From positions 15,356-79,355 of the forward strand of contig CAWIDR010000023.1 in the NCBI GenBank assembly GCA_963834905.1: DNA of 64,000 nt, in the 5' to 3' direction. Position 1 is the first letter of the stretch. Each line of letters opens with the position of its first letter. Source of the stretch: an uncultured Thermoleophilia bacterium (GTDB lineage: Bacteria; Actinomycetota; Thermoleophilia; UBA2241). The position numbers and the translations under genes were made by a program. The notes beneath the pieces were generated by a model. The model saw nothing but the letters and a program-made list of their open reading frames with translations, was not told where the DNA came from and did no database searches. Below, one piece after another: positions 1,942 to 41,764 of this stretch.

Positions 1942-3700
<1,759 letters not shown>

Positions 3701-13512: not shown

Positions 13513-15845
13513 GTGATGGCGGAGGCGGGCACACCTCTACGCGTCCGGCAGGCGGCGGACCTGCTCGGCGTCAGCCCGGCGACGGTGCGTCGCTGGGCCG
13601 ACAGCGGCCGCCTGGTCAGCCGGCGCACCAAGGACGGAGAGCGCCGCTTCCACCTCGACGACCTCAAGGCGAGCTCGGCACCGGCCGGCGGCCGTCCTCG
13701 CCATCTCTCCAGGCCGACGCGGAGCGGCGCTACCAGCTGCTCCTCGAGACGAGCGTCGAACTGGCGTCCTCGCTCGACCTCGACGAGGTGCTGCAATCGG
13801 CCGCACGCCGCCTCGGCTCCGCGCTCGACATCCCCGACTGTGACTTCTACCGGATCGAGGACGACAGGCTCGTGTGCGTGGCGTCGAGCACCAAGGGCCG
13901 CTTCGACGGCGTCTGGACCGGTCGCGAGTTCTCCCTGCGGGACTGGCACTCGGCGCGCCTGGCGATCGAGCAGCGCCGCGCGGTCGCCTTCGACAGCGTC
14001 GACGACCCGCGCCTGACGGCGGCGGAGCGCGACTCGGCGCTCGCCTACGGCCAGCGCAGCTTTCTCGTCCTCCCGCTCATCGCCCGCGACGAGGTGATCG
14101 GCACGATCGAGCTGCTCGACCACACCGAGCGCCGCTTCACGGAGGAGGAGATCGGGGTCGCAGAAGCCGTCGCCAAGCTCGTCGCCCTCGCCATCGAGCG
14201 GGCCAAGCTGCACGACGAGGTCAAGCGACTGCACGTCGCCAACCTGCGCGCCCTGAGCTCGGCGCTGAGCGCCAAGGACTACTACACGCTCGGCCACGCC
14301 AGCCGCGTGGCCGGCTACGCCGCGCTGCTGGGACGCGAGCTGGGGTGGAACGACGAGCGCCTGACCGAGCTGCAGAACGTCGCCTTCCTGCACGACATCG
14401 GCAAGATCGGCGTCTCGGACCGCGTGCTGCTCAAGGCCGGACCGCTCACCTCGGAGGAGTGGGAGCTCGTGCGCCAGCACCCCGGCATCAGCGCCGAGAT
14501 AGCGCGACCCCTCTTCCGCGACGAACTCGTGACCGGAGTGCGGCATCACCACGAGCACTTCGACGGCGCGGGCTACCCGGACGGCCTGGCCGGCGCGGAC
14601 ATCCCCGAGGTCGCGCGCCTGCTCTGTGTGGTGGACTGCTACGACGCGATGTCCAGCGAGCGGCCGTACCGGCGCGCGCTCAGCTACCGCCAGTGCCTGG
14701 CGGAACTGCGCCGGCTCGCCGGCACGCAGTTCGACCCGGACCTGGTCGCGGCGTTCCTCAAGGCCTTGCGACGCCTGCGGCGACGCCGCGCCGAGGTGGA
14801 CCGGCTCGCCGCGCGGGCAGCGGCGCGGATCGACCCCGCGGCCCACGTCCTCCTGCGCACGCGCGCCGACGAGGCGCGTCCGGAGTACGCGGAGATGGTG
14901 ACCGCGCTGCGCGAGTTCCGCGACCAGAACCCGCCGGTGCGCTTCATCACGAGCTTCGCGACGACCGAGGAGCGCTGCATCTCCGTGCTCGACACCGGCG
15001 AGGACGAGAGCGAGGTCTCGCACGTCGGCGACCAGTGGCTGGCGCAGGACGTGCTCGCCGCCGTGCTCGCCGGCGGCAGGAGCACCGCCAACGTGCTCAA
15101 CGCCGACGACTACGGCGTCTGGGTGACGGGCACGGCCCCGCTCTGCGCCGGCGACGGGACCGTGCTCGGGGCGGTCACGGTGGACGTGCCGGCGCTCGAA
15201 TGGGCGCCGTCCCTCCAGAGCGACCAGTCACACACCCTCGCGGCCATCCTCCGGGCGGCGACCATCCGCTTCAGCAGAGCCGAGGTCGAGGCGATCACCG
15301 ACGGCCTCACCGGCCTCTACAACCACCGCTACCTGCACGAACGCCTCGAGGAGGAACTCGACCGCGCCCGCCGCTACGACGACGACGTCAGCCTGCTGTT
15401 CATCGACTGCGACGAGTTCAAGCAGTTCAACGACGCGTACGGACACAAGCTCGGCGACGGGGCCCTGGCGCGCATCGCGCGCATCCTGGAGTCGTGCAGC
15501 CGGCGCGTCGACCTGGCGGCGCGCTACGGCGGCGAGGAGTTCGTGCTCGTGCTGGTCGGCACCGACGGCGCCGGCGCGCGGACGGTCGCGGAGCGCATCC
15601 GCGCGGAGGTCAAGACCACGGGCCTCGCCGGCGGCCAGCCCCTGACCGTCAGCATCGGCATCGCCTCGTATCCGCAGGACGCCGCCGGCAAGGACGAACT
15701 GCTCGACAAGGCCGACTGGGCGATGTACGCGGCCAAGTGTGGCGGCCGCGACCTCGTCCTGTCTTTCCGCGACGAGCTCGTCGCCCGGGATTGGGTGTCG
15801 CGGAGCGGCGGCCGCGCTCCGGCGCTGCCTCGCGACCACCGCTGA
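13513..15845 (+). CDS. Multidomain c-di-GMP signalling protein: MerR-type HTH + GAF + HD-GYP phosphodiesterase + GGDEF diguanylate cyclase, 1 frameshift near 13700
   Basis: HTH: LLGVSPATVRRWADSGRL. HD-GYP: HASRVAGYA...LHDIGKIGV...HHEHFDGAGYPDGL. GGDEF: LTGLYNHRYL...RYGGEEFVLVL. Confidence 0.75.
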
Positions 15846-16005: not shown

Positions 16006-17460
16006 TCATGCCGGCAGCAGCACGGTGAACACCGAGCCTTCGCCCTCGACGCTGGTCGCCTCGAGGCGGCCGCCGGCGCGCTCCACGAGGCGTTTCACGA
16101 TCGAGAGACCCAGGCCGTTGCCCTCGAGCTCGCGCGTCTCGGCACGCTTCTCGCGGAAGAACTCATCCCAGAGCCGCGCCAGGTTCTCCTCGCGGATGCC
16201 GATGCCGGTGTCGGCCACGTCGAGGCGCAGCCAGCCGTCCGCGACGGCGCCGCGCACGGTCACCGTGCCGGCGTCGCGGTTGTACTTGACCGCGTTGCCG
16301 ACGAGGTTGCTGAGCACGAGCTTCAGGTCGTCGGGACGGATGAGCGCCGGCGGCAGGCCGGCGGCGAGCTCGGTGACCACGGTCACCCCGCGCTGGGCGC
16401 CGCGCTCGCGAGCGAGCTCCACGACCTCGTCCAGGACGGGGGCGACCGGGACGAGCTCGGGCTCCTCGCCCTCCGGCGCCTGCTCGCTGCGCGCCAGCGT
16501 CAGCAGGTCGCGGATGAGCTGGGTCAGGTTGTCGATGCGGTGGTCGGCGCGGGCGACCATCGGGATGTAGGGGTCGAGGTCCTCGCCGAGGCTCTTGTCG
16601 GTCACGACCTCGAGCAGGCCCTTGATGGAGCCGAGCGGGCTCTTGAGCTCGTGCACCATGGTGCGGATGAACTTCTGCTTCTCCATGGCCAGGCGCCGCA
16701 CCTCGCTGATGTCGCTCAGCGTGAGGATGCGGCCGCGCGCTTCGCCGCCGTCGCCGCGGAAGGTGACGATGCTGGCCATCCAGGCCTGATCGCCGAGGTC
16801 GAGCTGACGGACGGTCCGGTCCTTGGCCGGCGCCGCCAGCTGCTCGCCCAGCGGCGCCAGGGCGCCGCCGCCGAGCAGTTCCCGCGCCGGCCGCATGAGC
16901 GCCTCGTCCTCGCCGAGCTCGAGCAGTTCGAGCATGGGCGGGTTGGCGAGCACCACGTCGCCGTCGCGGTTGACCACGAGGACGGCGTCGCGCAGGGAGC
17001 TCACCAGGGAGTGCGTCTGGGTCTTCTCCTCGGCGAGGGCGAGCAGGCTCGCCTCGTGCTCGGCGCGCAGGCGGTCCGCCTCCGTGCGCGCCTTCTTGTG
17101 GCGCAGCAGCGTCTCGATGACGCCCTCGAGGTCGTCGGGGCTGAACGGCTTGGGCAGGAAGAAGTCCACGCCCTGCCGCGTCGCGGCGATCGCCGTGTCG
17201 ATGTTGGCGTAGGCCGTGATCATGCACACCATGGCTTCGCAGCCGCGCTCCTTCATGGTCCGGAGCAGGCTGAGGCCGTCGGTGTCGGGCAGGCGGTAGT
17301 CGAGCAGGGCGACGTCGTAGTCGCGCTCGTCCAGCGCCGCCAGCGCCGCCGCGCCGTCGGCGGCCTCGGCGACGTCGTAGCCCTCCATCTGGAGGATCGT
17401 GCGGATGCCGCTGCGCACGCCGTACTCGTCGTCGACGATGAGGATGCTGCCCTCGGCCAT
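16006..17460 (-). CDS. Hybrid sensor histidine kinase: N-terminal receiver (REC) + PAS + HisKA + HATPase_c
   Basis: REC: ILIVDDEYGVR...ALLDYRLPDTDG...KPF. H-box: MVHELKSPLGSI. ATPase: LSNLVGNAVKY...DTGIGI...GNGLGLSIV. Confidence 0.85.
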   Translation of the reverse strand: MAEGSILIVDDEYGVRSGIRTILQMEGYDVAEAADGAAALAALDERDYDVALLDYRLPDTDGLSLLRTMKERGCEAMVCMITAYANIDTAIAATRQGVDFFLPKPFSPDDLEGVIETLLRHKKARTEADRLRAEHEASLLALAEEKTQTHSLVSSLRDAVLVVNRDGDVVLANPPMLELLELGEDEALMRPARELLGGGALAPLGEQLAAPAKDRTVRQLDLGDQAWMASIVTFRGDGGEARGRILTLSDISEVRRLAMEKQKFIRTMVHELKSPLGSIKGLLEVVTDKSLGEDLDPYIPMVARADHRIDNLTQLIRDLLTLARSEQAPEGEEPELVPVAPVLDEVVELARERGAQRGVTVVTELAAGLPPALIRPDDLKLVLSNLVGNAVKYNRDAGTVTVRGAVADGWLRLDVADTGIGIREENLARLWDEFFREKRAETRELEGNGLGLSIVKRLVERAGGRLEATSVEGEGSVFTVLLPA

Positions 17461-17485: not shown

Positions 17486-17911
17486 TCAGACCGCGGCCGG
17501 CTCGCCGGCGGAAGTCGCCACGGCGAGCTCCTCGATCACGGCGAGCACCTGCTTGCCGGTCACCGGCTTGTCCAGGAACCGGGCCAGCCGGGACCACTCG
17601 CGCAGCCCGCCGCTCTCGCCGTCGAACCGCGTGCCGGTCTCGGCGGCGACGCCGCTCAGCATGACGAGCGGGACATGGGCAAGCCGCTCGTCCTTGCCGA
17701 TCCGGTAGCCCAGACGGAACCCGTCGTCCACGTGCTCCATCATCAGGTCGAGGAAGATGATCGCCGGGGTCTCGCGCTCGAGCAGCGCCAGCGCCTCGTC
17801 GGGGGACTCGGCGGTGAGCACGCGGTAGCCGCGCGCCTCGAGGTAGACCTGCTTGCTCTCCAGGAAGTCCCGGTCGTCGTCGACGAACAGCACGGTGGTG
17901 GGGGTGGTCAT
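17486..17911 (-). CDS. Stand-alone CheY-like receiver domain protein
   Basis: TVLFVDDDRDFL...IIFLDLMMEHVDDGF...MLSG...KP. About 141 aa with no output domain. ATG overlaps the stop of the upstream gene (ATGA). Confidence 0.8.
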   Translation of the reverse strand: MTTPTTVLFVDDDRDFLESKQVYLEARGYRVLTAESPDEALALLERETPAIIFLDLMMEHVDDGFRLGYRIGKDERLAHVPLVMLSGVAAETGTRFDGESGGLREWSRLARFLDKPVTGKQVLAVIEELAVATSAGEPAAV

Positions 17912-19969
17912 GGCGTCGCTCCCTTGTCGTCGATCAGCGCGGCCTGCCCGCCGGCGTGGGTGCTGGGAAGCTCCACGTGGAAGGTGGTGCCGCGATCCGT
18001 CTCGGTGTCGAACCAGATCGTGCCGTTGTGCATCTTGACGATGCCGTAGCTGATGGGCAGGCCGAGGCCGGTGCCCTTGCCGATGCTCTTGGTGGTGAAG
18101 AAGGGCTGGAAGACCTTGTCGCGGGCGCTCCGCGGGATGCCGGCGCCCTCGTCGCTCACGGCGATGTGGACGCGGCCGCCGTCCTCGACCTCGTGGGCGC
18201 TCACGCGCACGGTGCCGTCCCGGCCCTCCATCGCCTCGACCCCGTTCTTGACCAGGTTCACGAGCACCTGGGTCATCTGGTCGCGGTCGAGGTCGGCGCG
18301 GAGGCCGGGATCCACGTCGACCACGAGGTCGACGGTGTGCCCGGCCGGCTGCGCCGTCGCGGCGGCGGAGTCGACCGCCTGCTGCACGACGTCGTGCACG
18401 GAGGCGTTCTCGACGTGCACGCGGCTCTGCCGCGCGAAGTCGAGCAGGTTGCCGACGATCTTCTTGCAGCGCTCGCTCTCCTCGGCGACGAGGTTGAGGT
18501 CGTGGTCCAGGTCGTCGCGGTCCTTGAGCTTCTTCCCGAGGATGTGCGTGTACAGGAGGATCGTGCTGAGCGGATTGTTGAGCTCGTGGGCGACGCCGGC
18601 GGCCATCTGGCCCATGCTGGCCAGCTTCTCCGTGTTGATGATGTGGCGGTGCACGTCGCGCATCTCGCTCCACGGCACGTTGAGCTCGGCGCAGACCCGC
18701 TCGGCCTGGTCGATCATGAACGGCAGGCACATGGCGTCCTCGGCCATGCCGGAGTAGACGGCGACCGCCTTGGCGCGGCAGGTCGGGTAGCCGCAGGCGC
18801 CGCAGTTCAGTTCGTCCTCGGGGAAGAACTTGTTGGTCCTCCCGAGGATGTCGCGGATCTCGTCCTCCGTCGGCTCGGGCAGCCGCTGGTCGTCGGGCGT
18901 GTACGCCCGGCTGAGGACGAGGCCGGGGAAGTTCTCGGCGAGGCGGTCGTCCTCGGCCTCGCCGGCGGCGCTCACGGCCGCGGCCTCCGCCTCCCGGCGA
19001 CAGTCGGCCACGTACTCGCCGACGCGGCGCTTGCGCAGGAGGCCGGGCTCGGAGGAGCTGATGCCCGGCCCGCAGTAACAGCCACGGCACATGAGGGCCT
19101 CCACGAGCAGCGTCTGGCCCGTGTCGGCCTCGCTCAGGCTGTCCAGCACCTCGATGGTCTCGTCGTGGCCGCTGACCACGAGCACGTCCGGGTCGAGCAT
19201 GCCGCGGTCCATGCCGGCGGCGTCGAGCAGGCCGCCGGGCAGCGGGAACACCCGCGCCCGCCCGGCGGCCGGCGCGTCCCACTCCGCCTCCGCCGCCTTC
19301 GCGGGGTCGACGCCCCGCGCCGCCAGCAGCCGGTGGGCCTCCTGCAGCGTGAGCACCTCGTCGATCACCGGCGGCAGCTGCGGGTCGCGGGCCTCCGCCT
19401 TCTTGGCCACGCACGGGCCGATGAAGACGCAGCGCACCTCGTCGCCGTAGAGCTCCTTCACCGCCAGGGCGGTGGCGATCATCGGCGACACGATCGGCAC
19501 GAGGCGATCCACCATCTCCGGGTGGTACTTGCGCACGTACTCGGCGACGGCGGGGCACGCGGTCGCGATGTGCACGCCGGTCGGGTTCGCCTCGAGGTGC
19601 TCCGCGTAGGCGCGGCTCACGAGGTCGGCGCCCTGGGCGACCTCCACGACGTGGTCGAACCCGGCCGCCTTGAAGGCGCCGACGACCTGCCCGGCGGGCA
19701 CGTCGAAGCCCGCCGGGAACGACGGCGCCAGCAGGGCGGCCACCGGGGCGTCCTCCTCGAGCATCCAGGACGCCTGCTCGAGCCCGCTCAGGTACGCCTT
19801 GGCGTTCTGGGAGCAGACCAGCGTGCAGTTGCCGCAGGCGATGCAGCGCTCGTCGACCACGAACGCCTGGCCGTCCTCGATGCGGATCGCCTGCGCCGGG
19901 ACAGTCGCGCACGCAGGTGTAGCACCTGCGGCAGTTCTGCTTGATCGTCGTGATGATCGTGCCGCTCAT
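17908..19969 (-). CDS. Sensory [FeFe]-hydrogenase-like protein fused to a histidine kinase (HydS-type H-domain + Cx2Cx4Cx16C cluster + HisKA + HATPase_c), 1 frameshift near 19880
   Basis: N-terminal 2x[4Fe-4S] ferredoxin: CRRCYTCVRDCP, CIACGNCTLVC. H-domain motifs: ATACPAVAEY (L1 variant TACP), FIGPCVAKKAEA (L2), EALMCRGCYCGPG (L3 variant). Then CGACGYPTCRAKAVAVYSGMAEDAMC (Cx2Cx4Cx16C). HK: AHELNNPLS, LVNLVKNGVEA...DEGAGI...GTGLGLPISY. Confidence 0.8.
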
Positions 19970-19980
19970 CCGGGCTCCAG

Positions 19981-21702
19981 TCAGACCGCCGCGACCCTGT
20001 CGGGGCGGCGGTCGGTGTAGGTGCGGTGCAGCAGGCGGTGGGAGACCTCGCCCAGGGGGCGACCGAGGAGCTCCTCGTAGAGCGCCTGCACATCGGCGTT
20101 CTCGTGGGAGCGCCGGGTGCGGGAGCGCCGGTCCACTTCGTAGAGGCGCTCCAGCCGTTCCTGGACCGCCTGCGCATCGGTGTCGTAGGGCTGCCCGCCG
20201 CCGCCGATGCAGCCGCCGGGGCAGCTCATCACCTCGACGAAGTGCATGCCGGCCTCGGGATCGAGCAGGCCGTCCACGGACTCCTTGACGCGCCCGAGGC
20301 CGTTGACGACGGCCAGGTTGAGGCGGACGCCGGCGGCGGTGACGGTGAAGCGGCGCACGCCTTCGGCGCCGCGGGCCTCAGCCACCTTGGGCCCGCCCTC
20401 CAGCTCCTGGCCGGCGACGAGCAGGTACGCCGTGCGCACGGCCGCCTCCATGACGCCGCCGCTGCCGGCGAACAGCCGGCCGGCGCCGGTCGCCTCGGCG
20501 AACGGCTCGTCCAGCGGCGCCTGCTCGGTGAAGCGCGCGAACTCGACCCCGAAGCGGCCCCACAGGTGCTCGAGCTCGCGCGTGGTGAGCACGTAGTCGA
20601 CGTCGCTCTGGTCCTGCGCCTCGAACTTCTTGGCCGTGCACGGCATGAGCGAGACGACCACGAGGCGCTTGCCCGCGAGGTCCGCGTGCTTCGGGTAGAT
20701 CTCGCTGATCAGCGCGCCGGCCATCTGCTGCGGGCTCTTGCAGGTGGAGAGGTGCGGGATCAGGTCGGGCCGGTGCGTCTCGACGAAGTTCACCCAGGCC
20801 GGGGAGCAGCTGGTGAACATCGGCAGCACGCCGCCGTTCTGGATGCGGTCGAGCAGCTCGGAGCCCTCTTCCATGATGGTCAGGTCGGCGGCGAAGCCGG
20901 TGTCGAACACGGCGTCGAAGCCGATGCGCTTGAGCGCCGCCGCCAGCCGCTCGAGCATCACGCGGACGCCCTCGCTCTTGCTGTGGCCCTCGAGCAGGGT
21001 CGCCGGCACTGCCGGCGCCACCTGCGCGACCACCACGGCGTCGGGGTCGGCCAGGGCCCTGACGACGTCGTCCACCTGGTCGCGCTCCACGATCGCGCCC
21101 GTGGGGCACACGCGCGCGCACTGGCCGCAGTACACGCACTCGCTCACGTTGAGGCCGATGGCGAAGCCGGGCGCCACCTTCGTCTTGAACCCGCGCCCGG
21201 TGAAGTCGATGGCGCCGATGCCCTGCACGTCGTGGCAGATGGTCACGCAGCGGCCGCAGAGGACGCACTTGTTGGGGTCGCGCCACAGCGCCGGGGAGCT
21301 GATGTCCACCGGGTGCTGCTTGACGGCGCCGACGTAGCGGCGCTGCCGCACGCCGAGGTCGCCGGCCAGCGTGGCCAGCTCGCAGTCGCCGCCGCGCACG
21401 CAGGAGAGGCAGTCCTGCGGATGGCTCGCGATGAGCAGTTCCATGATCGCGCGCCGCGCCTTGAGCACCCGCGGCGTGTGCGTGTGCACGGCCATGCCCT
21501 CGGCCGCCTCGAGCGTGCAGCTGGTGAGCAGCCGCGGGTCGCCCTCGACCTCCACCACGCAGAGGCGGCAGGAAGCGGCCGGGCTCGGAGCCCAGTCGAG
21601 GGAGCAGAGGTGCGGGATCTCGATGCCGGCGCGGCGGGCGGCCAGGAGCACGGTCTCCCCGCGGGTCGCCTCGATCTCTTTTCCGTTGATGGTGAGCTTC
21701 AT
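19981..21702 (-). CDS. hydA: [FeFe]-hydrogenase catalytic subunit HydA (M3-type: 2Fe-2S + His-ligated 4Fe-4S + 2x4Fe-4S + H-cluster domain)
   Basis: MKLTINGKEI...CSLDWAPSPAASCRLCVVEV, HPQDCLSCVRGGDCE, CVLCGRCVTIC...CVYCGQCARVCP. H-cluster motifs: MFTSCSPAW, SLMPCTAKKFEA, VEVMSCPGGCIGGGGQP. Confidence 0.85.
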   Translation of the reverse strand: MKLTINGKEIEATRGETVLLAARRAGIEIPHLCSLDWAPSPAASCRLCVVEVEGDPRLLTSCTLEAAEGMAVHTHTPRVLKARRAIMELLIASHPQDCLSCVRGGDCELATLAGDLGVRQRRYVGAVKQHPVDISSPALWRDPNKCVLCGRCVTICHDVQGIGAIDFTGRGFKTKVAPGFAIGLNVSECVYCGQCARVCPTGAIVERDQVDDVVRALADPDAVVVAQVAPAVPATLLEGHSKSEGVRVMLERLAAALKRIGFDAVFDTGFAADLTIMEEGSELLDRIQNGGVLPMFTSCSPAWVNFVETHRPDLIPHLSTCKSPQQMAGALISEIYPKHADLAGKRLVVVSLMPCTAKKFEAQDQSDVDYVLTTRELEHLWGRFGVEFARFTEQAPLDEPFAEATGAGRLFAGSGGVMEAAVRTAYLLVAGQELEGGPKVAEARGAEGVRRFTVTAAGVRLNLAVVNGLGRVKESVDGLLDPEAGMHFVEVMSCPGGCIGGGGQPYDTDAQAVQERLERLYEVDRRSRTRRSHENADVQALYEELLGRPLGEVSHRLLHRTYTDRRPDRVAAV

Positions 21703-21713
21703 GGTCGTTCCTC

Positions 21714-23709
21714 TCAGGCGACGGCCAGGACGGCCTGCTTGGGGCAGGAGTCGGCGCAGGCGCCGCAGCCGGTGCAGCGGTCGACGATGATGGAGTGGGC
21801 GAACTTGCGCTTGCCGAGGATCGCGCCGCTCGGGCAGTTCTTGGCGCAGAGGGCGCAGCCGGTGCAGAGCTCGGGGTCGATGTCGAAGACGCGGAGCCCC
21901 GTGCAGGCGCCGGCCGGGCAGGCGCTCTCCATGACGTGGGCCTCGTATTCGTCGCGGAAGAACCGCAGGGTGCTGAGCACCGGGTTCGCCGCGGACTGGC
22001 CGAGGCCGCAGAGAGAAGTGTCCTTGACGATCTCGGCGAGCTCCTCGAGGTGAAGGATGCCGCGGAACCGCTCGAGGCGGCGCAGGTCGTCGCCGACCGG
22101 CCGCTCGGTGAGCTCGGCCAGGATCTCGTACATGCGCGTCGTGCCTTCGCGGCAGGGGGTGCACTTGCCGCAGCTCTCGTTGCGGATGAACTCCATGAAG
22201 AACTTGGCCACGTCGACCATGCAGGTGCGCTCGTCCATGACGACCATGCCGCCGGAGCCCATCATCGCGCCGAGCTCCTGCAGCGTGCCGTAGTCGGTCG
22301 CCACGTCGAGGTGCGCGTCGGGGATGCAGCCGCCGCTGGGGCCGCCGATCTGCACGGCCTTGATGTGGTGGCCGGCCGGGGCGCCGCCGCCGATGTCGTA
22401 GACGACCTCGCGCAGCGGGATGCCCACCGGGACCTCCACGAGGCCGGTGTTCCGCACGCGGCCGGAGAGGGCGAAGACCTTGGTGCCGGCCGCGTCGCCG
22501 TAGCCCAGATCGCGGAACCACTCGGCGCCCTTGTCGATGCACCGCCGGCACGTTGGCCAGCGTCTCGACGTTGTTGAGCACGGTCGGGCAGCCGTGGAGG
22601 CCGGAGACCGCGGGATACGGCGGGCGGGGACGGGGCATGCCGCGCCCGCCCTCGATGCTGGCCAGGATCGCCGTCTCCTCGCCGCAGACGAAGGCGCCGG
22701 CGCCCATCTTGATGGTGATGTCGAAGTCGACGAGCGTGCCGAGGATGTTGCTGCCGAGCAGCCCCGCGGCGCGGCACTGGCGGATCGCCTCGCTGAGGCG
22801 CTCGATCGCCAGCGGGTACTCGGCGCGGCAGTAGACGTAGCCCTTCGTCGCGCCGATCGCGTAGGCGGCGATGAGCATGCCCTCGACGATGCGGAACGGG
22901 TCGCTCTCGAGCACGGCGCGGTCCATGAACGCGCCGGGGTCGCCCTCGTCGGCGTTGCAGATGAGGTACTTCTGGCTGCGCGCCTGGTCGTGGGCGACCT
23001 TCCACTTCCGGCCGGTCGGGAAGCCGGCGCCGCCGCGGCCGCGCAGGCCGGAGGCGATGACCTCGTCGCAGACCTCGGCCGGGGTCATCGTCGCCAGCGC
23101 CCTGGCGGCGGCGCGGAAGCCGCCGGCGGCCAGCGCCGCGTCCAGGCTGGCCGGGTCGATGACGCCGCAGTTGGCGAGCACGACCTTGGTCTGCCGGGCG
23201 AAGAACGGCGTCTCGCCGATCGGCTTGACGCCGCGGTACAGGTCGTCGGGGTCGTCATAGCGGCCGAGCAGGAAGCGGTTGTGCAGCTGCCCGTCACCGA
23301 ACACGGTCTGGAGGAACTCGTCGATCGTCTCCGGGCCCAGGTCGCAGTAGCTGAGCCGCACGCCGTCGGCGGTCATCAGGTCGACGAAGACCTCGCGCTG
23401 GCAGTAGCCCACGCAGCCGGTCTCGACGATCGGCACGCGCAGGCCGCGCCGCTCGAAGTAGGCGTTCATCTTCTCGATGACGGTGAGCGCGCCGTTGGCG
23501 CGCCCGCAGGTGCCGGCGCCGACGGAGAGGATCATCCCGTCGCCGCCGCGGCGGGCGCGCTCGAGGCGCGCCGCCCGCTCCTGCCGGCAGGCGTCGTCGT
23601 CGTGGCAGATCGGTCCGTGGTCCACGCAGGCGATCGCGTCGGCGCAGGGGGTCGCCGCGGTGTGCCGGCAGCGCGTGCAGCACGGGGTCATGAGCTGGCT
23701 GTGGTTCAT
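21714..23709 (-). CDS. hydB: NuoF-like NAD(P)H-binding flavoprotein subunit of the hydrogenase (HydB/HndC), with N-terminal thioredoxin-like [2Fe-2S] domain and C-terminal 2x[4Fe-4S], 1 indel near 22530
   Basis: [73 protein letters not shown]...[12 protein letters not shown]. Confidence 0.85.
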
Positions 23710-23778: not shown

Positions 23779-24270
23779 TCAGGCCGCCGCTTCGTCGCTC
23801 GCGGCCTTGACGTCCACCTCGTCCAGGAGCGCGTCGAGCTTCTCCGTCGTGAGGTGGCCGTAGAACTCGCCGTCCAGCTTGACCACCGGAGCGATCGAGC
23901 AGGCGCCGAGGCACGCGACGCTGATGACGGTGAAGCGGCCGTCGGCCGAGTTGCCGTCGTCGCGCAGCTTCAGCCGCCGCTTCAGGTGCTGGGCGAGCGC
24001 GAGACTCTGCTTGACGTGGCACGCCGTGCCGCGGCAGAGCTCGATCACGTGCTCGCCCAGCGGGGCGAAGCGGAACTGGTTGTAGAACGTGGCGACGCCG
24101 TAGACGCGGCTGACCGGCGTCTCCAGAGCCTCGGCCACCCGGACCATCGCGTCCGTGGAGATGAACCCCTCGGCCGCCTGGATCTCCTGCAGCAGCGGGA
24201 TCATCTGCTCGCGCGTGAGCTGTTCCCGGCGTCCGGCGATGATGGATTCGGCGGTGGTCACGACGGTCAC
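23779..24270 (-). CDS. hydC: NuoE-like [2Fe-2S] subunit of the hydrogenase (HydC/HndA)
   Basis: LCRGTACHVKQS...VACLGACSIAPVVKLDGEFYG is the thioredoxin-like 2Fe-2S motif pair. GTG start overlaps the upstream stop. Confidence 0.8.
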   Translation of the reverse strand: MTVVTTAESIIAGRREQLTREQMIPLLQEIQAAEGFISTDAMVRVAEALETPVSRVYGVATFYNQFRFAPLGEHVIELCRGTACHVKQSLALAQHLKRRLKLRDDGNSADGRFTVISVACLGACSIAPVVKLDGEFYGHLTTEKLDALLDEVDVKAASDEAAA

Positions 24271-24686
24271 GCGCCCTTCGCGACGGCCTCGTCCGCGGCC
24301 AGCAGCTCGGCGATCGCGGCGGCGAGGTCGGCGAGCTTGACCGGCTTCTCGAAGAACTTGGCGGCCGGCCATTCCCGGTACATCATCGGCTCGAAGACGT
24401 GCGTCTTGGTCTCGAGTTCCTTGGTGAAGCCGCTCATGATGATGATCGGGATGCGCTCGGTCTCGGGCTCGTCGCGCAGCTTGAAGGCCACGTTGAAGCC
24501 GTCGGTGTCGTAATCCATCATGATGTCGAGCACCACGAGGTCGGGGCGCTGCACGGCGAGCCGCTCGCGCGCCTCGATGCCGCTGTGGGCGGTGTCCACG
24601 TCGTACCCGCGGGCCTCCAGGAACGCCTTGACGCTGGCGACCAGGTCGCGGTCGTCGTCCACCATCAGGATGCGCTTGGCCTTCAT
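24267..24686 (-). CDS. Stand-alone CheY-like receiver domain protein, first gene of the hydrogenase operon
   Basis: MKAKRILMVDDDRDLV...LVVLDIMMDYDTDGF...IIMSG...KP. A strong RBS GGAGGAG precedes the ATG at 24686. Confidence 0.8.
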   Translation of the reverse strand: MKAKRILMVDDDRDLVASVKAFLEARGYDVDTAHSGIEARERLAVQRPDLVVLDIMMDYDTDGFNVAFKLRDEPETERIPIIIMSGFTKELETKTHVFEPMMYREWPAAKFFEKPVKLADLAAAIAELLAADEAVAKGA

Positions 24687-24790: not shown

Positions 24791-25529
24791 TCACGCCGTC
24801 AGCCCCTCGGCCTCGTCCGAGCTCAGCTCTTCCGGCTCGCCCGGCTCCGTCCTCGCCAGGAACGAGAGCATCTCCAGCTTGGACGAGATGTCCGTGTTCT
24901 CGACGAAGCACCCTGCCGGCGCCTTGACGCGCTTGGGGACGAAGTTGAGGACCGCGTGGACGCCGGAGGCGCTGACGCGGTCGACCAGCGTCTGCAGCCC
25001 TTCGGGCCGGGACGCGAGGATCGCCATGTGGACGTCGAACTCGCGCAGCACCGTCTCCAGGCGATCGACGTGGTAGCAGCGCCGGCCGGCGAAGACACGG
25101 CCGACCTTCTCGCTGTCGACGTCGAAGGCCACGGCGATGTGGAAGCCGCGCTCCTCGAAGCCACGGTAGGAGAGGAGGGCCCTCCCCAGGTCGCCCACAC
25201 CGAACAGCGCGACCGCCTGGGTCTCGTCGGTGCCCATGATGCGGCTGATCGTGCGGCTCATCTGGTAGACGTTGTAGCCGCGAGAGATGTTGCCGAAGGT
25301 GCCGAAGCTGGCGAGGTCGCGACGGAGCTGCGCGGGAGTCACTCCGACCAGCTCGGCGAGCGTCGTGGGAGTGGATGTTCTCGACGCCGTCGCGGTCGAG
25401 CTCCTCGAGCACCTTGCGGTAGACGCTGAGCCGCTCGACCGTCTGCAGAGAGACCCGCTTGGCGGGCCGGTCCTGCGGCGTCAGGGCCTCAGGGCCGTTC
25501 TGTTCGCTGGTGCTCAAGGTTCCTCCCAC
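24791..25529 (-). CDS. rex: Redox-sensing transcriptional repressor Rex (winged-helix + NADH-binding Rossmann), 1 frameshift near 25340, start uncertain
   Basis: N-terminus: AKRVSLQTVERLSVYRKVLEEL...GVENIHSH. C-terminus: FGTFGNISRGYNVYQ...VALFGVGDLGRALL...ILASRPEGLQ...VHAVLNFVP. Confidence 0.75.
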
Positions 25530-40497: not shown

Positions 40498-41764
40498 CTA
40501 CTTGAGGAAGCCCTCGTAGTGCCGCATGAGGAGCTGCGCCTCCATCTGCCGCATCGTGTCGAGCGCGACGCCCACGACGATGAGGAGCGACGTGCCGCCG
40601 AAGTAGAACGGGACGTTGATCGGCGGCCGCGACAGCAGCCACGGCAGCACCGCGAGCGCCGCCAGGAACAGCGCGCCCGGGAACGTCAGCCGGGTCAGGA
40701 TGCGGTCAAGGTACTCGGCCGTCGGCCGGCCGGGACGCACGCCGGGGATGAACCCGCCGTACTTCTTGAGGTTGTCGGCCTGGTCGATGGGGTTGAACGT
40801 CACCGCCGTGTAGAAGTACGTGAAGATGACGATGAGGATGGCCTCGCCGATGATGTAGAGGAACGTGCTCGGCCCGAACGTCCGGTTGAACCATCCCCCG
40901 ACCCCGCTCGTGCCCAGGAACTGCGCGAACGTCGGGATGATCATCATCACCGACGAGGCGAAGATCACCGGGATCACGCCTGCCATGTTGACCTTGAGCG
41001 GGATGAACGTGCTCTGGCCGCCCATCATCCGGCGTCCGACCACTCGCTTGGCGTACTGCACCGGCACACGGCGCTCGCCCGTGGTGATCCAGATCACGCC
41101 CACGACCACGGCCAGACCGATGACCATGAACAGGATGATCGGCAGCAGGTTCATGGTGAACAGCTGCGCGGCGCCCGACGGGATACGAGAGACGATGCTG
41201 ATGAAGATGATGATCGACATGCCGTTGCCGATGCCACGGGCGGTGATGAGCTCGCCGAGCCACATGACGATCACGGCGCCGGCGACGAGGCTGGTCACGA
41301 TCAGGCCGGCGCGCCACCACGTGAGGTCAGGCAGCGCGTCGTACTGGCGGAACAGCACGATGTAGCCCGGCCGACTGCACGATCGAGAGGCCGACGGTGA
41401 GCCAGCGCGTGTACTTGGTGATCTGCTTCTGCCCCTGCTCGCCCTCTTTGGCCAGCTCCTCGAGCTTGGGGATGACCACGGTGAGGAGCTGCATGATGAT
41501 CGACGCCGTGATGTACGGCATGATGCCGAGCGCGAACACGGCGACGCGCCGGAGCGCGCCACCGGAGAACAGGTCGAGGAAGCCGACGACGCCGGCGCTG
41601 CCCGATTCGAAGAACTTCTGCAGCGCCGCCAGGTCGATGCCCGGCACGGGCACGTAGGACCCGAACCGGTAGATCGCGATCATCCCCGCCGTGAACAGAA
41701 GCTTGGTGCGGAGATCCGGGATCTTCCATGCGTTGGCGAGCGACTGCCAGAGCTTGTTGTTCAC
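40498..41764 (-). CDS. secY: Preprotein translocase SecY, 1 frameshift near 41330-41400, GTG start
   Basis: N-terminus: LWQSLANAWKIPDLRTKLLFTAGMIAIYRFGSYVPVPGID. C-terminal frame: GIGNGMSIIIF...YGGQSTFIPLKVN. Confidence 0.85.

Follow-up and report, generated by a model that had tools for sequence, protein, structure and literature searches.

To our knowledge, only two sensory [FeFe] hydrogenases have been studied: TmHydS of Thermotoga maritima and TamHydS of Thermoanaerobacter mathranii. Here we describe a relative, hydS-HK, encoded on the minus strand (17908–19969) of a 64,000-nucleotide stretch of DNA, hereafter the window, from an uncultured Thermoleophilia bacterium (GCA_963834905.1, contig CAWIDR010000023.1, positions 15,356 to 79,355). 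The gene joins a sensory-type [FeFe] hydrogenase to a complete histidine kinase in a single polypeptide, which is 686 aa long once an extra G at 19897 is deleted. We think it likely that the product, which belongs to the putative sensory and group C-like lineage of [FeFe] hydrogenases, is a histidine kinase that responds to H2, feeding a phosphorelay tied to the hydrogenase HydABC. The window copy is an ordinary member of a widespread, catalogued family and not a new kind of system.

Hydrogenases of the sensory kind work slowly, have a high affinity for H2 and are encoded beside group A hydrogenase genes; Land et al. described a Cx2Cx4Cx16C motif for the subclasses M2e and M2f, and reported that C299 (CpI numbering) and the group A proton path are lost (PMC8163306). 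The two that have been characterised carry an ordinary H-cluster, and both react with H2 (PMC8163306); how such proteins transmit the H2 signal is still an open question in 2026 (PMC13104023). TmHydS (group C, M2f) shares with the window protein the N-terminal pair of [4Fe-4S] clusters, the H-domain and the Cx2Cx4Cx16C motif (PMC8163306, PMC13104023), as well as the loss of C299, a glycine at M353 and a gene beside group A hydrogenase genes; it differs in having a PAS domain after the C-terminal cluster, no kinase in the polypeptide, and serine at M497, where the window protein has leucine. TamHydS (group D, M2e) is alike in lacking PAS, in its three accessory clusters and in the leucine at M497 (PMC8163306, PMC13104023), but it ends shortly after the C-terminal cluster, a kinase-like protein is encoded by a separate gene, and position 353 is serine, the hydroxyl donor typical of group D, instead of the glycine seen here. 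The [NiFe] regulatory system HoxBC/HoxJ is similar in principle, in that a slow, high-affinity hydrogenase controls a histidine kinase governing hydrogenase genes (PMC8163306). Its metal site and fold are unrelated, however, sensor and kinase are separate, and HoxJ has a PAS-like domain.

Closer still are proteins known from genome surveys. HydDB (2016) lists [FeFe] group C1 as “histidine kinase-linked (putative)”: like the window protein, these are putative H2 sensors signalling via a histidine kinase, and no C1 member has been biochemically characterised (PMC5037454). In some of them the kinase is a separate neighbouring gene, as in Vallitalea (PMC6163223), whereas here it is fused and complete; others have only HATPase_c, with H-cluster motifs that are hard to find (PMC11406978), whereas here all H-cluster motifs are intact. 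In reviews and biochemical work, group C is still presented as fused to PAS (PMC11216029, PMC13104023). The nearest described proteins are the group C3 “BfuT” proteins of a 2024 study of Hydrogenedentota, some of which have a PAS domain and others a histidine-kinase domain; the gene of the kinase type adjoins bfuA on its downstream side in sub-type V clusters of Hydrogenedentota and Caldithrix abyssi, with related clusters in some Bacteroidota (PMC11406978). BfuT and the window protein thus both combine an H-domain with a histidine kinase, and both genes come immediately downstream of the one for the A subunit in a bfuC-B-A (hydC-B-A) set. Three Hydrogenedentota loci among those we compared (L020, L025, L051) have exactly the gene order of the window, and the partner HydA has serine at the fifth P1 position (TSCSP), as is reported for most sub-types (PMC11406978). 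The window copy differs in coming from a high-GC (guanine plus cytosine), Thermoleophilia-like actinobacterial lineage, and the BfuT study leaves aside the linker, the downstream REC and REC-PAS-HK genes, and Rex (PMC11406978).

A sensory-type hydrogenase domain fused to a complete kinase

The protein is built, in order, from a ferredoxin-like domain with two [4Fe-4S] clusters, the H-domain, the Cx2Cx4Cx16C cluster (Pfam FeS), a 46-residue helical linker, HisKA and HATPase_c. Our Pfam search was made on a 650-aa open reading frame (ORF) that covers all but the N-terminus, and domain residue numbers are those of this ORF: Fe_hyd_lg_C (PF02906) matches residues 40–265 (E = 5e-41; 141.3 bits against a gathering cutoff of 22.1), FeS (PF04060) residues 351–380 (E = 1e-9), HisKA residues 416–478 (E = 2e-15) and HATPase_c residues 525–634 (E = 1e-26), values well out of reach of chance. 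NCBIfam has no dedicated model for the protein; its best matches, AtoS/ZraS-type kinases and a generic [FeFe] hydrogenase subfamily, are all below their cutoffs.

All features of the gene lie on the minus strand. The N-terminal ferredoxin-like domain (CRRCYTCVRDCP ... CIACGNCTLVCS, 19810–19933) was assigned from Fer4 and from the precomputed Pfam domains of homologs, the Fer4 family matches on the two N-terminal fragments being weak and all under gathering scores. The H-domain (19066–19743), recognised by Pfam, by alignment to HydA structures and by Foldseek, contains the APS motif (19705–19734), L1 (ATACP, 19552–19566), L2 (GPCVAKKAE, 19393–19419) and L3 (MCRGCYCGPG, 19063–19092). The accessory cluster CGACGYPTC-x16-C (PF04060; 18727–18804) has exactly the spacing Cx2Cx4Cx16C when counted directly, and 261 of the 270 sequences scanned, which are the repaired window protein and 269 homologs, contain this motif. 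The linker predicted from AlphaFold and from family linker lengths (18589–18726) runs from the last cluster cysteine to the phospho-acceptor histidine, and the kinase core of HisKA and HATPase_c (17959–18615) is supported by Pfam, by invariant columns and by Foldseek. It carries the H-box HELNNPL (18568–18588) and the N (18229–18264), G1 (18133–18153), F (18088–18111) and G2 (18037–18075) boxes of HATPase_c; in an alignment of 46 homologs, HELNNPL, LVNLVKNGVEAM, DEGAGIP, FQPFFTTK and GTGLGLP are invariant or nearly so. The kinase portion following the C-terminal cluster amounts to 270 aa. An earlier note on this DNA had read the H-domain, L1, L2, L3, accessory-cluster and H-box motifs, and a fusion to a HisKA/HATPase kinase, from the letters alone: each motif lies where that note put it in the minus-strand frame, and with both Pfam domains and every box present the kinase is complete.

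The AlphaFold model has a mean pLDDT (predicted local distance difference test) score of 72, with confident H- and CA domains and values of about 54–72 in the L3 region. In Foldseek the C-terminal part matches ZraS and HK853 at the top, and the N-terminal part matches HydA of the T. kivui HydABC complex (8a6t_A).

The phmmer alignment to solved HydA structures, which reaches 4e-19, places “hiATACPav” on “mfTSCCPsw”, “figPCvaKKaEa” on “vsvmPCigKKfEa” and “vealmCr.GCycGpG” on “vevmaCpgGCmsGgG”. The TACP segment is therefore homologous to L1, as the earlier note had supposed, and L2 and L3 line up with MPCxxKKxE and ExMxCPGGC of HydA, so that the cysteines said to be kept there are indeed kept. 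The proton-relay cysteine C299 of CpI is replaced by alanine, again as the note had it, while the neighbouring [4Fe-4S]H ligand C300 is retained. Along the rest of the proton path, E279 falls in an alignment gap, E282 becomes Ala and R286 His, and S319 is retained; M353 is replaced by Gly and M497 by Leu. The four H-cluster ligands (C300, C355, C499 and C503 of CpI) correspond to C102, C150, C258 and C261 of the 650-aa ORF, and neither these nor the equivalent of K358 nor the APS motif varies among 46 homologs, whose identity goes down to 62%. In relatives at 35–45% identity the cysteine-containing motifs are largely retained, and nearly all relatives have Ala, Pro, Thr or Ser at position 299.

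L3 reads CxGC (Cx2C) and not CPGGC, a spacing common to almost all of the sensory-type relatives compared. We also considered “CRGCYC” as an unusual extra ligand set and rejected it: conservation does not extend to the third cysteine (consensus MCRGCYxGPG), and almost all sensory-type relatives compared have the Cx2C spacing, so that this protein is not special in it. The Cx2Cx4Cx16C motif agrees with the extra [4Fe-4S] motif of sensory hydrogenases (PMC8163306), which the earlier note had recognised in CGACGYPTC...(16)...C.

Judged by its sequence, the product looks like a group C-like, putative sensory-type [FeFe] hydrogenase, and a sensory H-domain joined to a histidine kinase beside a group A3 cluster agrees with the kinase-linked HydDB groups C1/C3, BfuT of sub-type V included. 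The H-domain looks group C-like because residue 353 is glycine as in TmHydS, where group D typically has Ser/Thr. The protein fits neither described subclass as a whole: it has no PAS after the C-terminal cluster as M2f (the TmHydS type) does, and it neither carries Ser/Thr at 353 nor ends after the cluster as group D/M2e proteins do.

The linker between the accessory cluster and the kinase

No PAS domain was found in the whole protein by Pfam at E ≤ 1, nor in the isolated segment from L3 to HisKA at E ≤ 10, where the matches are FeS and HisKA only. The same searches gave clear positives in controls: PAS/PAS_4 between FeS and HisKA in two relatives whose segment is 110–160 aa longer (P0138, P0147), and FeS followed by PAS in a 569-aa relative (P0209). 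The AlphaFold model is all helical from residue 273 to the CA domain, with two low-confidence linker helices (379–393 and 397–422). A hidden PAS domain is ruled out by the profile searches with their positive controls together with the helical model; with only 46 residues between the last cysteine and the histidine, the kinase follows the accessory cluster directly, and the domain order is unlike that of the PAS-containing HydS, both as first proposed.

The distance from the last cysteine to the H-box histidine is 46 residues in 72 of the 80 species loci and in most representatives. Where the length differs from 46, it does so by a multiple of seven (32, 39, 53, 67) in 21 of 31 sequences, against about 4 expected by chance, although the sequences are related and the count is not a clean statistic. 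Lengths that differ in sevens are what a register-keeping helix running into the DHp domain would require, and they suggest a rigid coiled-coil signalling helix by which the Fe-S domain is mechanically coupled to the DHp of the kinase.

This regularity bears on a different account of the fusion, in which the protein is a weakly catalytic hydrogenase, the kinase is regulated by something else, and the fusion merely co-localises two activities. In its favour, TmHydS and TamHydS do turn over H2 at low rates (PMC8163306). Yet the protein contains no other sensory domain to which the kinase could answer, the heptad-constrained linker indicates mechanical coupling from the Fe-S/H-domain part to DHp, and the fusion keeps its fixed 46-aa spacing across more than 15 phyla; we regard mere co-localisation as highly improbable.

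Reading frame and integrity of the gene

Third-position GC is 0.96 across 17908–19969 on the minus strand and marks the coding frame. In the window as assembled the gene is broken by a 1-nt insertion, an extra G at 19897 (TGTCCC[G]GCGCAGG, minus strand), which interrupts the frame inside the first ferredoxin motif and cuts that motif (CRRCYTCVRDCP, 19898–19933) off from the rest of the protein. A frameshift had been noticed before and placed at 19880; it is present, at 19897. The ORF list consequently splits the gene into the 650-aa ORF with a GTG start (17908–19860) and a second ORF in another frame, which starts at the ATG at 19969, opens with MSGTIITTIKQNCRRCYTCVRDCP and continues as Arg/Pro/Gly-rich nonsense. 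The 650-aa “GTG” ORF is an artefact of ORF calling, and the true gene is 17908–19969. After repair the N-terminus reads CRRCYTCVRDCPAQAIRIEDGQAFVVDERCIACGNCTLVCS, a regular two-cluster ferredoxin motif. Homologs of 681–691 aa, with identities of up to 97%, span 100% of the repaired protein, and because they match it end to end we take the repair to be correct.

The frameshift at 19897 is most likely a sequencing or assembly error, for four reasons. First, the metagenome contig of the nearest relative (L001) matches 5.7 kb of the window collinearly with an identity of 96.6%, spanning hydA, the sensor, REC and REC-HK, and at the site in question it reads GACTG-CCCCGCG, in frame. Second, two other genes of the window are similarly affected: hydB has a 1-nt insertion at 22539 (GCGGTG[C]ATCGACAAG), after which reading resumes in another frame as IDKGAEWF, and the essential gene secY has an apparent 1-nt frameshift near 41364, between ...LSIVQSAGL and YIVLFRQYDAL (~41332–41389). 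Third, the window contains a poly(A) run of ~920 nt (1945–2865) followed by ~800 nt of G/T/A-rich, almost C-free, low-complexity sequence (to 3700), in a window whose GC content is otherwise 64–74%; the stretch 1945–3700 looks like a long-read assembly artefact and affects the trust to be placed in other single-base indels of the window. Fourth, comparison of the repaired gene with L001 gives a ratio of nonsynonymous to synonymous substitution (dN/dS) of 0.19. The organism therefore most likely makes an intact 686-aa protein.

Were the insertion real, three cysteines of the first ferredoxin motif would be lost and the gene would be a pseudogene in a hyd operon that is decaying together with hydB. 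Frameshifts do occur in two of the five hyd-cassette genes in the window, and the N-terminal clusters are indispensable for the integrity of TamHydS (PMC13104023), so that the lesion would inactivate the protein. Decay does not, however, explain the same kind of 1-nt frameshift in an essential gene of the same window, the stretch of poly(A) and C-free junk typical of long-read artefacts, the intact frame of the nearest relative with its low dN/dS, or the lack of any stop or further indel in 2 kb beyond the single base. We consider a pseudogene very unlikely.

Two further possibilities were rejected. A programmed frameshift, or a real GTG start at 19860, disagrees with the closest relative and the full-length homologs, all of which are in frame, and with the conservation of the N-terminal motif. 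An assembly chimera, which the earlier note had named as a possible refutation, is countered by the collinear independent contig and by a gene order conserved in about 60 genomes; the region is not chimeric.

The hyd cassette and its conservation

The genes around hydS-HK form a cassette on the minus strand. At its head is rex, the redox-sensing repressor (24794–25480, stop to stop; NCBIfam Rex, 3.5e-49, above cutoff), followed by a stand-alone receiver upstream of hydC (24267–24686), which was assigned from its translation and is conserved in close, Thermoleophilia-type loci. The three hydrogenase genes come next: hydC, a NuoE-like thioredoxin-like [2Fe-2S] protein (23779–24270), the NuoF-like hydB, split by the insertion described above (21714–23709), and hydA (19981–21702), the catalytic subunit of a HydABC-type (group A3-like) [FeFe] hydrogenase with Fer2_4, NADH-G_4Fe-4S_3, Fer4, Fe_hyd_lg_C and Fe_hyd_SSU domains. 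The stop codon of hydA is 11 nt from the start of hydS-HK, which is preceded by GGAG. Downstream, the stop of hydS-HK is overlapped by 4 nt by the start of a 141-aa stand-alone response-regulator receiver (17486–17911; Pfam Response_reg, 1e-13), a conserved gene whose product is the predicted cognate receiver, phosphotransfer to it being likewise a prediction. A 484-aa REC-PAS-HisKA-HATPase hybrid kinase (16006–17460) closes the series.

Gene order was counted in the 80 best related loci, with those having enough flanking sequence as denominators. The gene hydA lies directly upstream of the sensor on the same strand in 59 of 68 loci, a receiver gene directly downstream in 56 of 77, and a REC/PAS/HK hybrid kinase follows downstream in 64 of 68; rex was found in 46 related loci, mostly on the same strand and upstream of hydC. 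The usual cassette of the family is thus rex-REC-hydC-hydB-hydA-[sensor kinase]-REC-REC/PAS/HK, and the sensor probably adjoins the very hydrogenase that it regulates.

The window hydA has TSCSP in L1 instead of TSCCP, so that by position the [4Fe-4S]H ligand C300 of CpI is serine. A serine-type L1 occurs in 62 of 72 HydA copies of the related loci L001–L081 (58 TSCSP and 4 SSCSP). This is not a new finding, having been noted earlier without biochemical follow-up (PMC3787301, PMC11406978).

So close a tie to hydA also fits a sensor that responds to redox state or electron flux instead of H2. In that case the N- and C-terminal clusters would register how far ferredoxin or HydABC is reduced, the [2Fe] subsite would be non-functional or irrelevant, and the protein might dock on the complex as a “T” subunit. 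The protein does have three accessory clusters, its gene is tightly coupled to hydA (11 nt), BfuT has been treated as a subunit of the bifurcating complex and some group C1 proteins are without recognisable H-cluster motifs (PMC11406978), and no HydEFG maturase genes were found in the 64-kb window. What such a sensor leaves hard to explain is the H-cluster site itself: the four cysteine ligands, the lysine that hydrogen-bonds the distal CN- and the APS motif do not vary among the 46 homologs, and the cysteine motifs largely persist at 35–45% identity, as would hardly be expected without a [2Fe] subsite. Both characterised sensory relatives, moreover, have a normal H-cluster and react with H2 (PMC8163306). 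We therefore find a pure redox sensor unlikely, and prefer the H2-responsive kinase.

Some loci and flanking regions show further features. In six related loci (L009, L055, L063, L067, L073, L075) a second, divergent hydC-hydB-hydA set (about 40–45% identity) lies a few kb downstream of REC/PAS/HK, so that one sensor cassette may lie between two bifurcating hydrogenase operons. In the window, a convergent GAF-HD-GYP-GGDEF gene (13788–15845, plus strand) comes right after the REC-PAS-HK gene; we do not count it as part of the cassette or as a link to cyclic di-GMP, since only one locus has it beside the cassette. Farther away, 36000–62900 (minus strand) is a ribosomal-protein/rpoBC/fusA-tuf/secY-adk region, assigned by ORF sizes and order only, with a GC content of about 0.65–0.68 against about 0.71–0.73 in the hyd region.

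Distribution of the family

In a word-indexed search 6435 proteins score at E ≤ 1e-20, and the best 120 share one Pfam string. A search of 50%-identity representatives gave dozens of single-stretch, end-to-end matches at 31–45% identity to proteins of about 650–700 aa. Going by the spacing of their motifs, 55 or more of the top 150 representatives are direct fusions. Another 18 have an insertion between FeS and the H-box, which in the two tested (P0138 and P0147) contains PAS. In ~40 there is no kinase but a tail of the size of a PAS domain, as seen in the one tested, P0209; a few others, M2e-like, stop directly behind the cluster. In a neighbour-joining tree of 117 H-domains, the direct fusions mostly group together, apart from a class of about 570–590 aa, which, on the strength of one scanned member (P0209), we took for the type with PAS only.

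At least 587 loci in species-representative genomes encode a relative of the sensor kinase. The 80 best of them are all in metagenome-assembled genomes, from Actinomycetota (Thermoleophilia, Gaiellales), Planctomycetota, Hydrogenedentota, Bacteroidota, Myxococcota, Desulfobacterota, Acidobacteriota, Verrucomicrobiota, Spirochaetota, Elusimicrobiota, Melainabacteria and others. The best GTDB match among these 80 (77%) is in a genome of an uncultured Thermoleophilia bacterium, and identity to the Hydrogenedentota proteins is about 42–45%. The novelty that the earlier note had implied for a PAS-less kinase fusion does not hold, the family being large and already catalogued (PMC5037454; PMC11406978).

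Discussion

We envisage signalling by the H2-responsive kinase as follows. H2 would react slowly at the H-cluster, as it does in TmHydS and TamHydS (PMC8163306), by way of a site that appears to have no canonical proton-relay path. The H-domain and the tightly attached C-terminal [4Fe-4S] domain would thereby change in redox state or conformation, and this change could then be passed through the continuous, heptad-phased helix to the DHp helix, where it would alter autophosphorylation at the histidine of HELNNPL. From there, going by gene order, the phosphate would move to the translationally coupled stand-alone receiver, to the receiver of the REC-PAS-HK hybrid encoded by the next gene, or to both. 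This relay may tune the expression or the activity of the co-encoded electron-bifurcating HydABC, with Rex at the head of the cassette presumably supplying an NADH/NAD+ input.

Several points weigh against this reading. Besides the maturase genes missing from the window, the cassette contains no DNA-binding output domain; the linker and DHp have a pLDDT of 35–55 in what is a monomer AlphaFold model, and the heptad count draws on related sequences. In the literature searched we found no biochemical work on a kinase-fused member, so that we purely infer the H2 dependence of the kinase. Finally, H2 does not reduce the C-terminal cluster in TamHydS (PMC13104023), and a simple model in which reduction of the cluster is the signal seems, on our analysis, doubtful.

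Because that cluster is not reduced, a structural role for the C-terminal Fe-S domain is favoured over a redox role. We tentatively propose, as a possibility we would rate below even, that this domain is no redox relay but a rigid mechanical adaptor, which would transmit structural change caused by H2 in the H-domain to DHp via a coiled coil of 46 ± 7n residues in fixed register, and that the cassette acts post-translationally or by a branched phosphorelay instead of through a classical transcription factor. The latter part is suggested by the lack of a DNA-binding output in the cassette.

The window adds an example from a Thermoleophilia lineage to the family, in a cassette with Rex and two further two-component genes that is conserved across many phyla, and the heptad-stepped linker lengths are a modest new point. 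If our reading is correct, the fused family would lend itself naturally to working out how sensory [FeFe] hydrogenases signal. Its natural fusion to a complete histidine kinase would offer an immediate quantitative read-out, in autophosphorylation and in phosphotransfer to a partner that can be named. The family would thus be an obvious experimental entry point, with the heptad-phased linker as a concrete model of the coupling.

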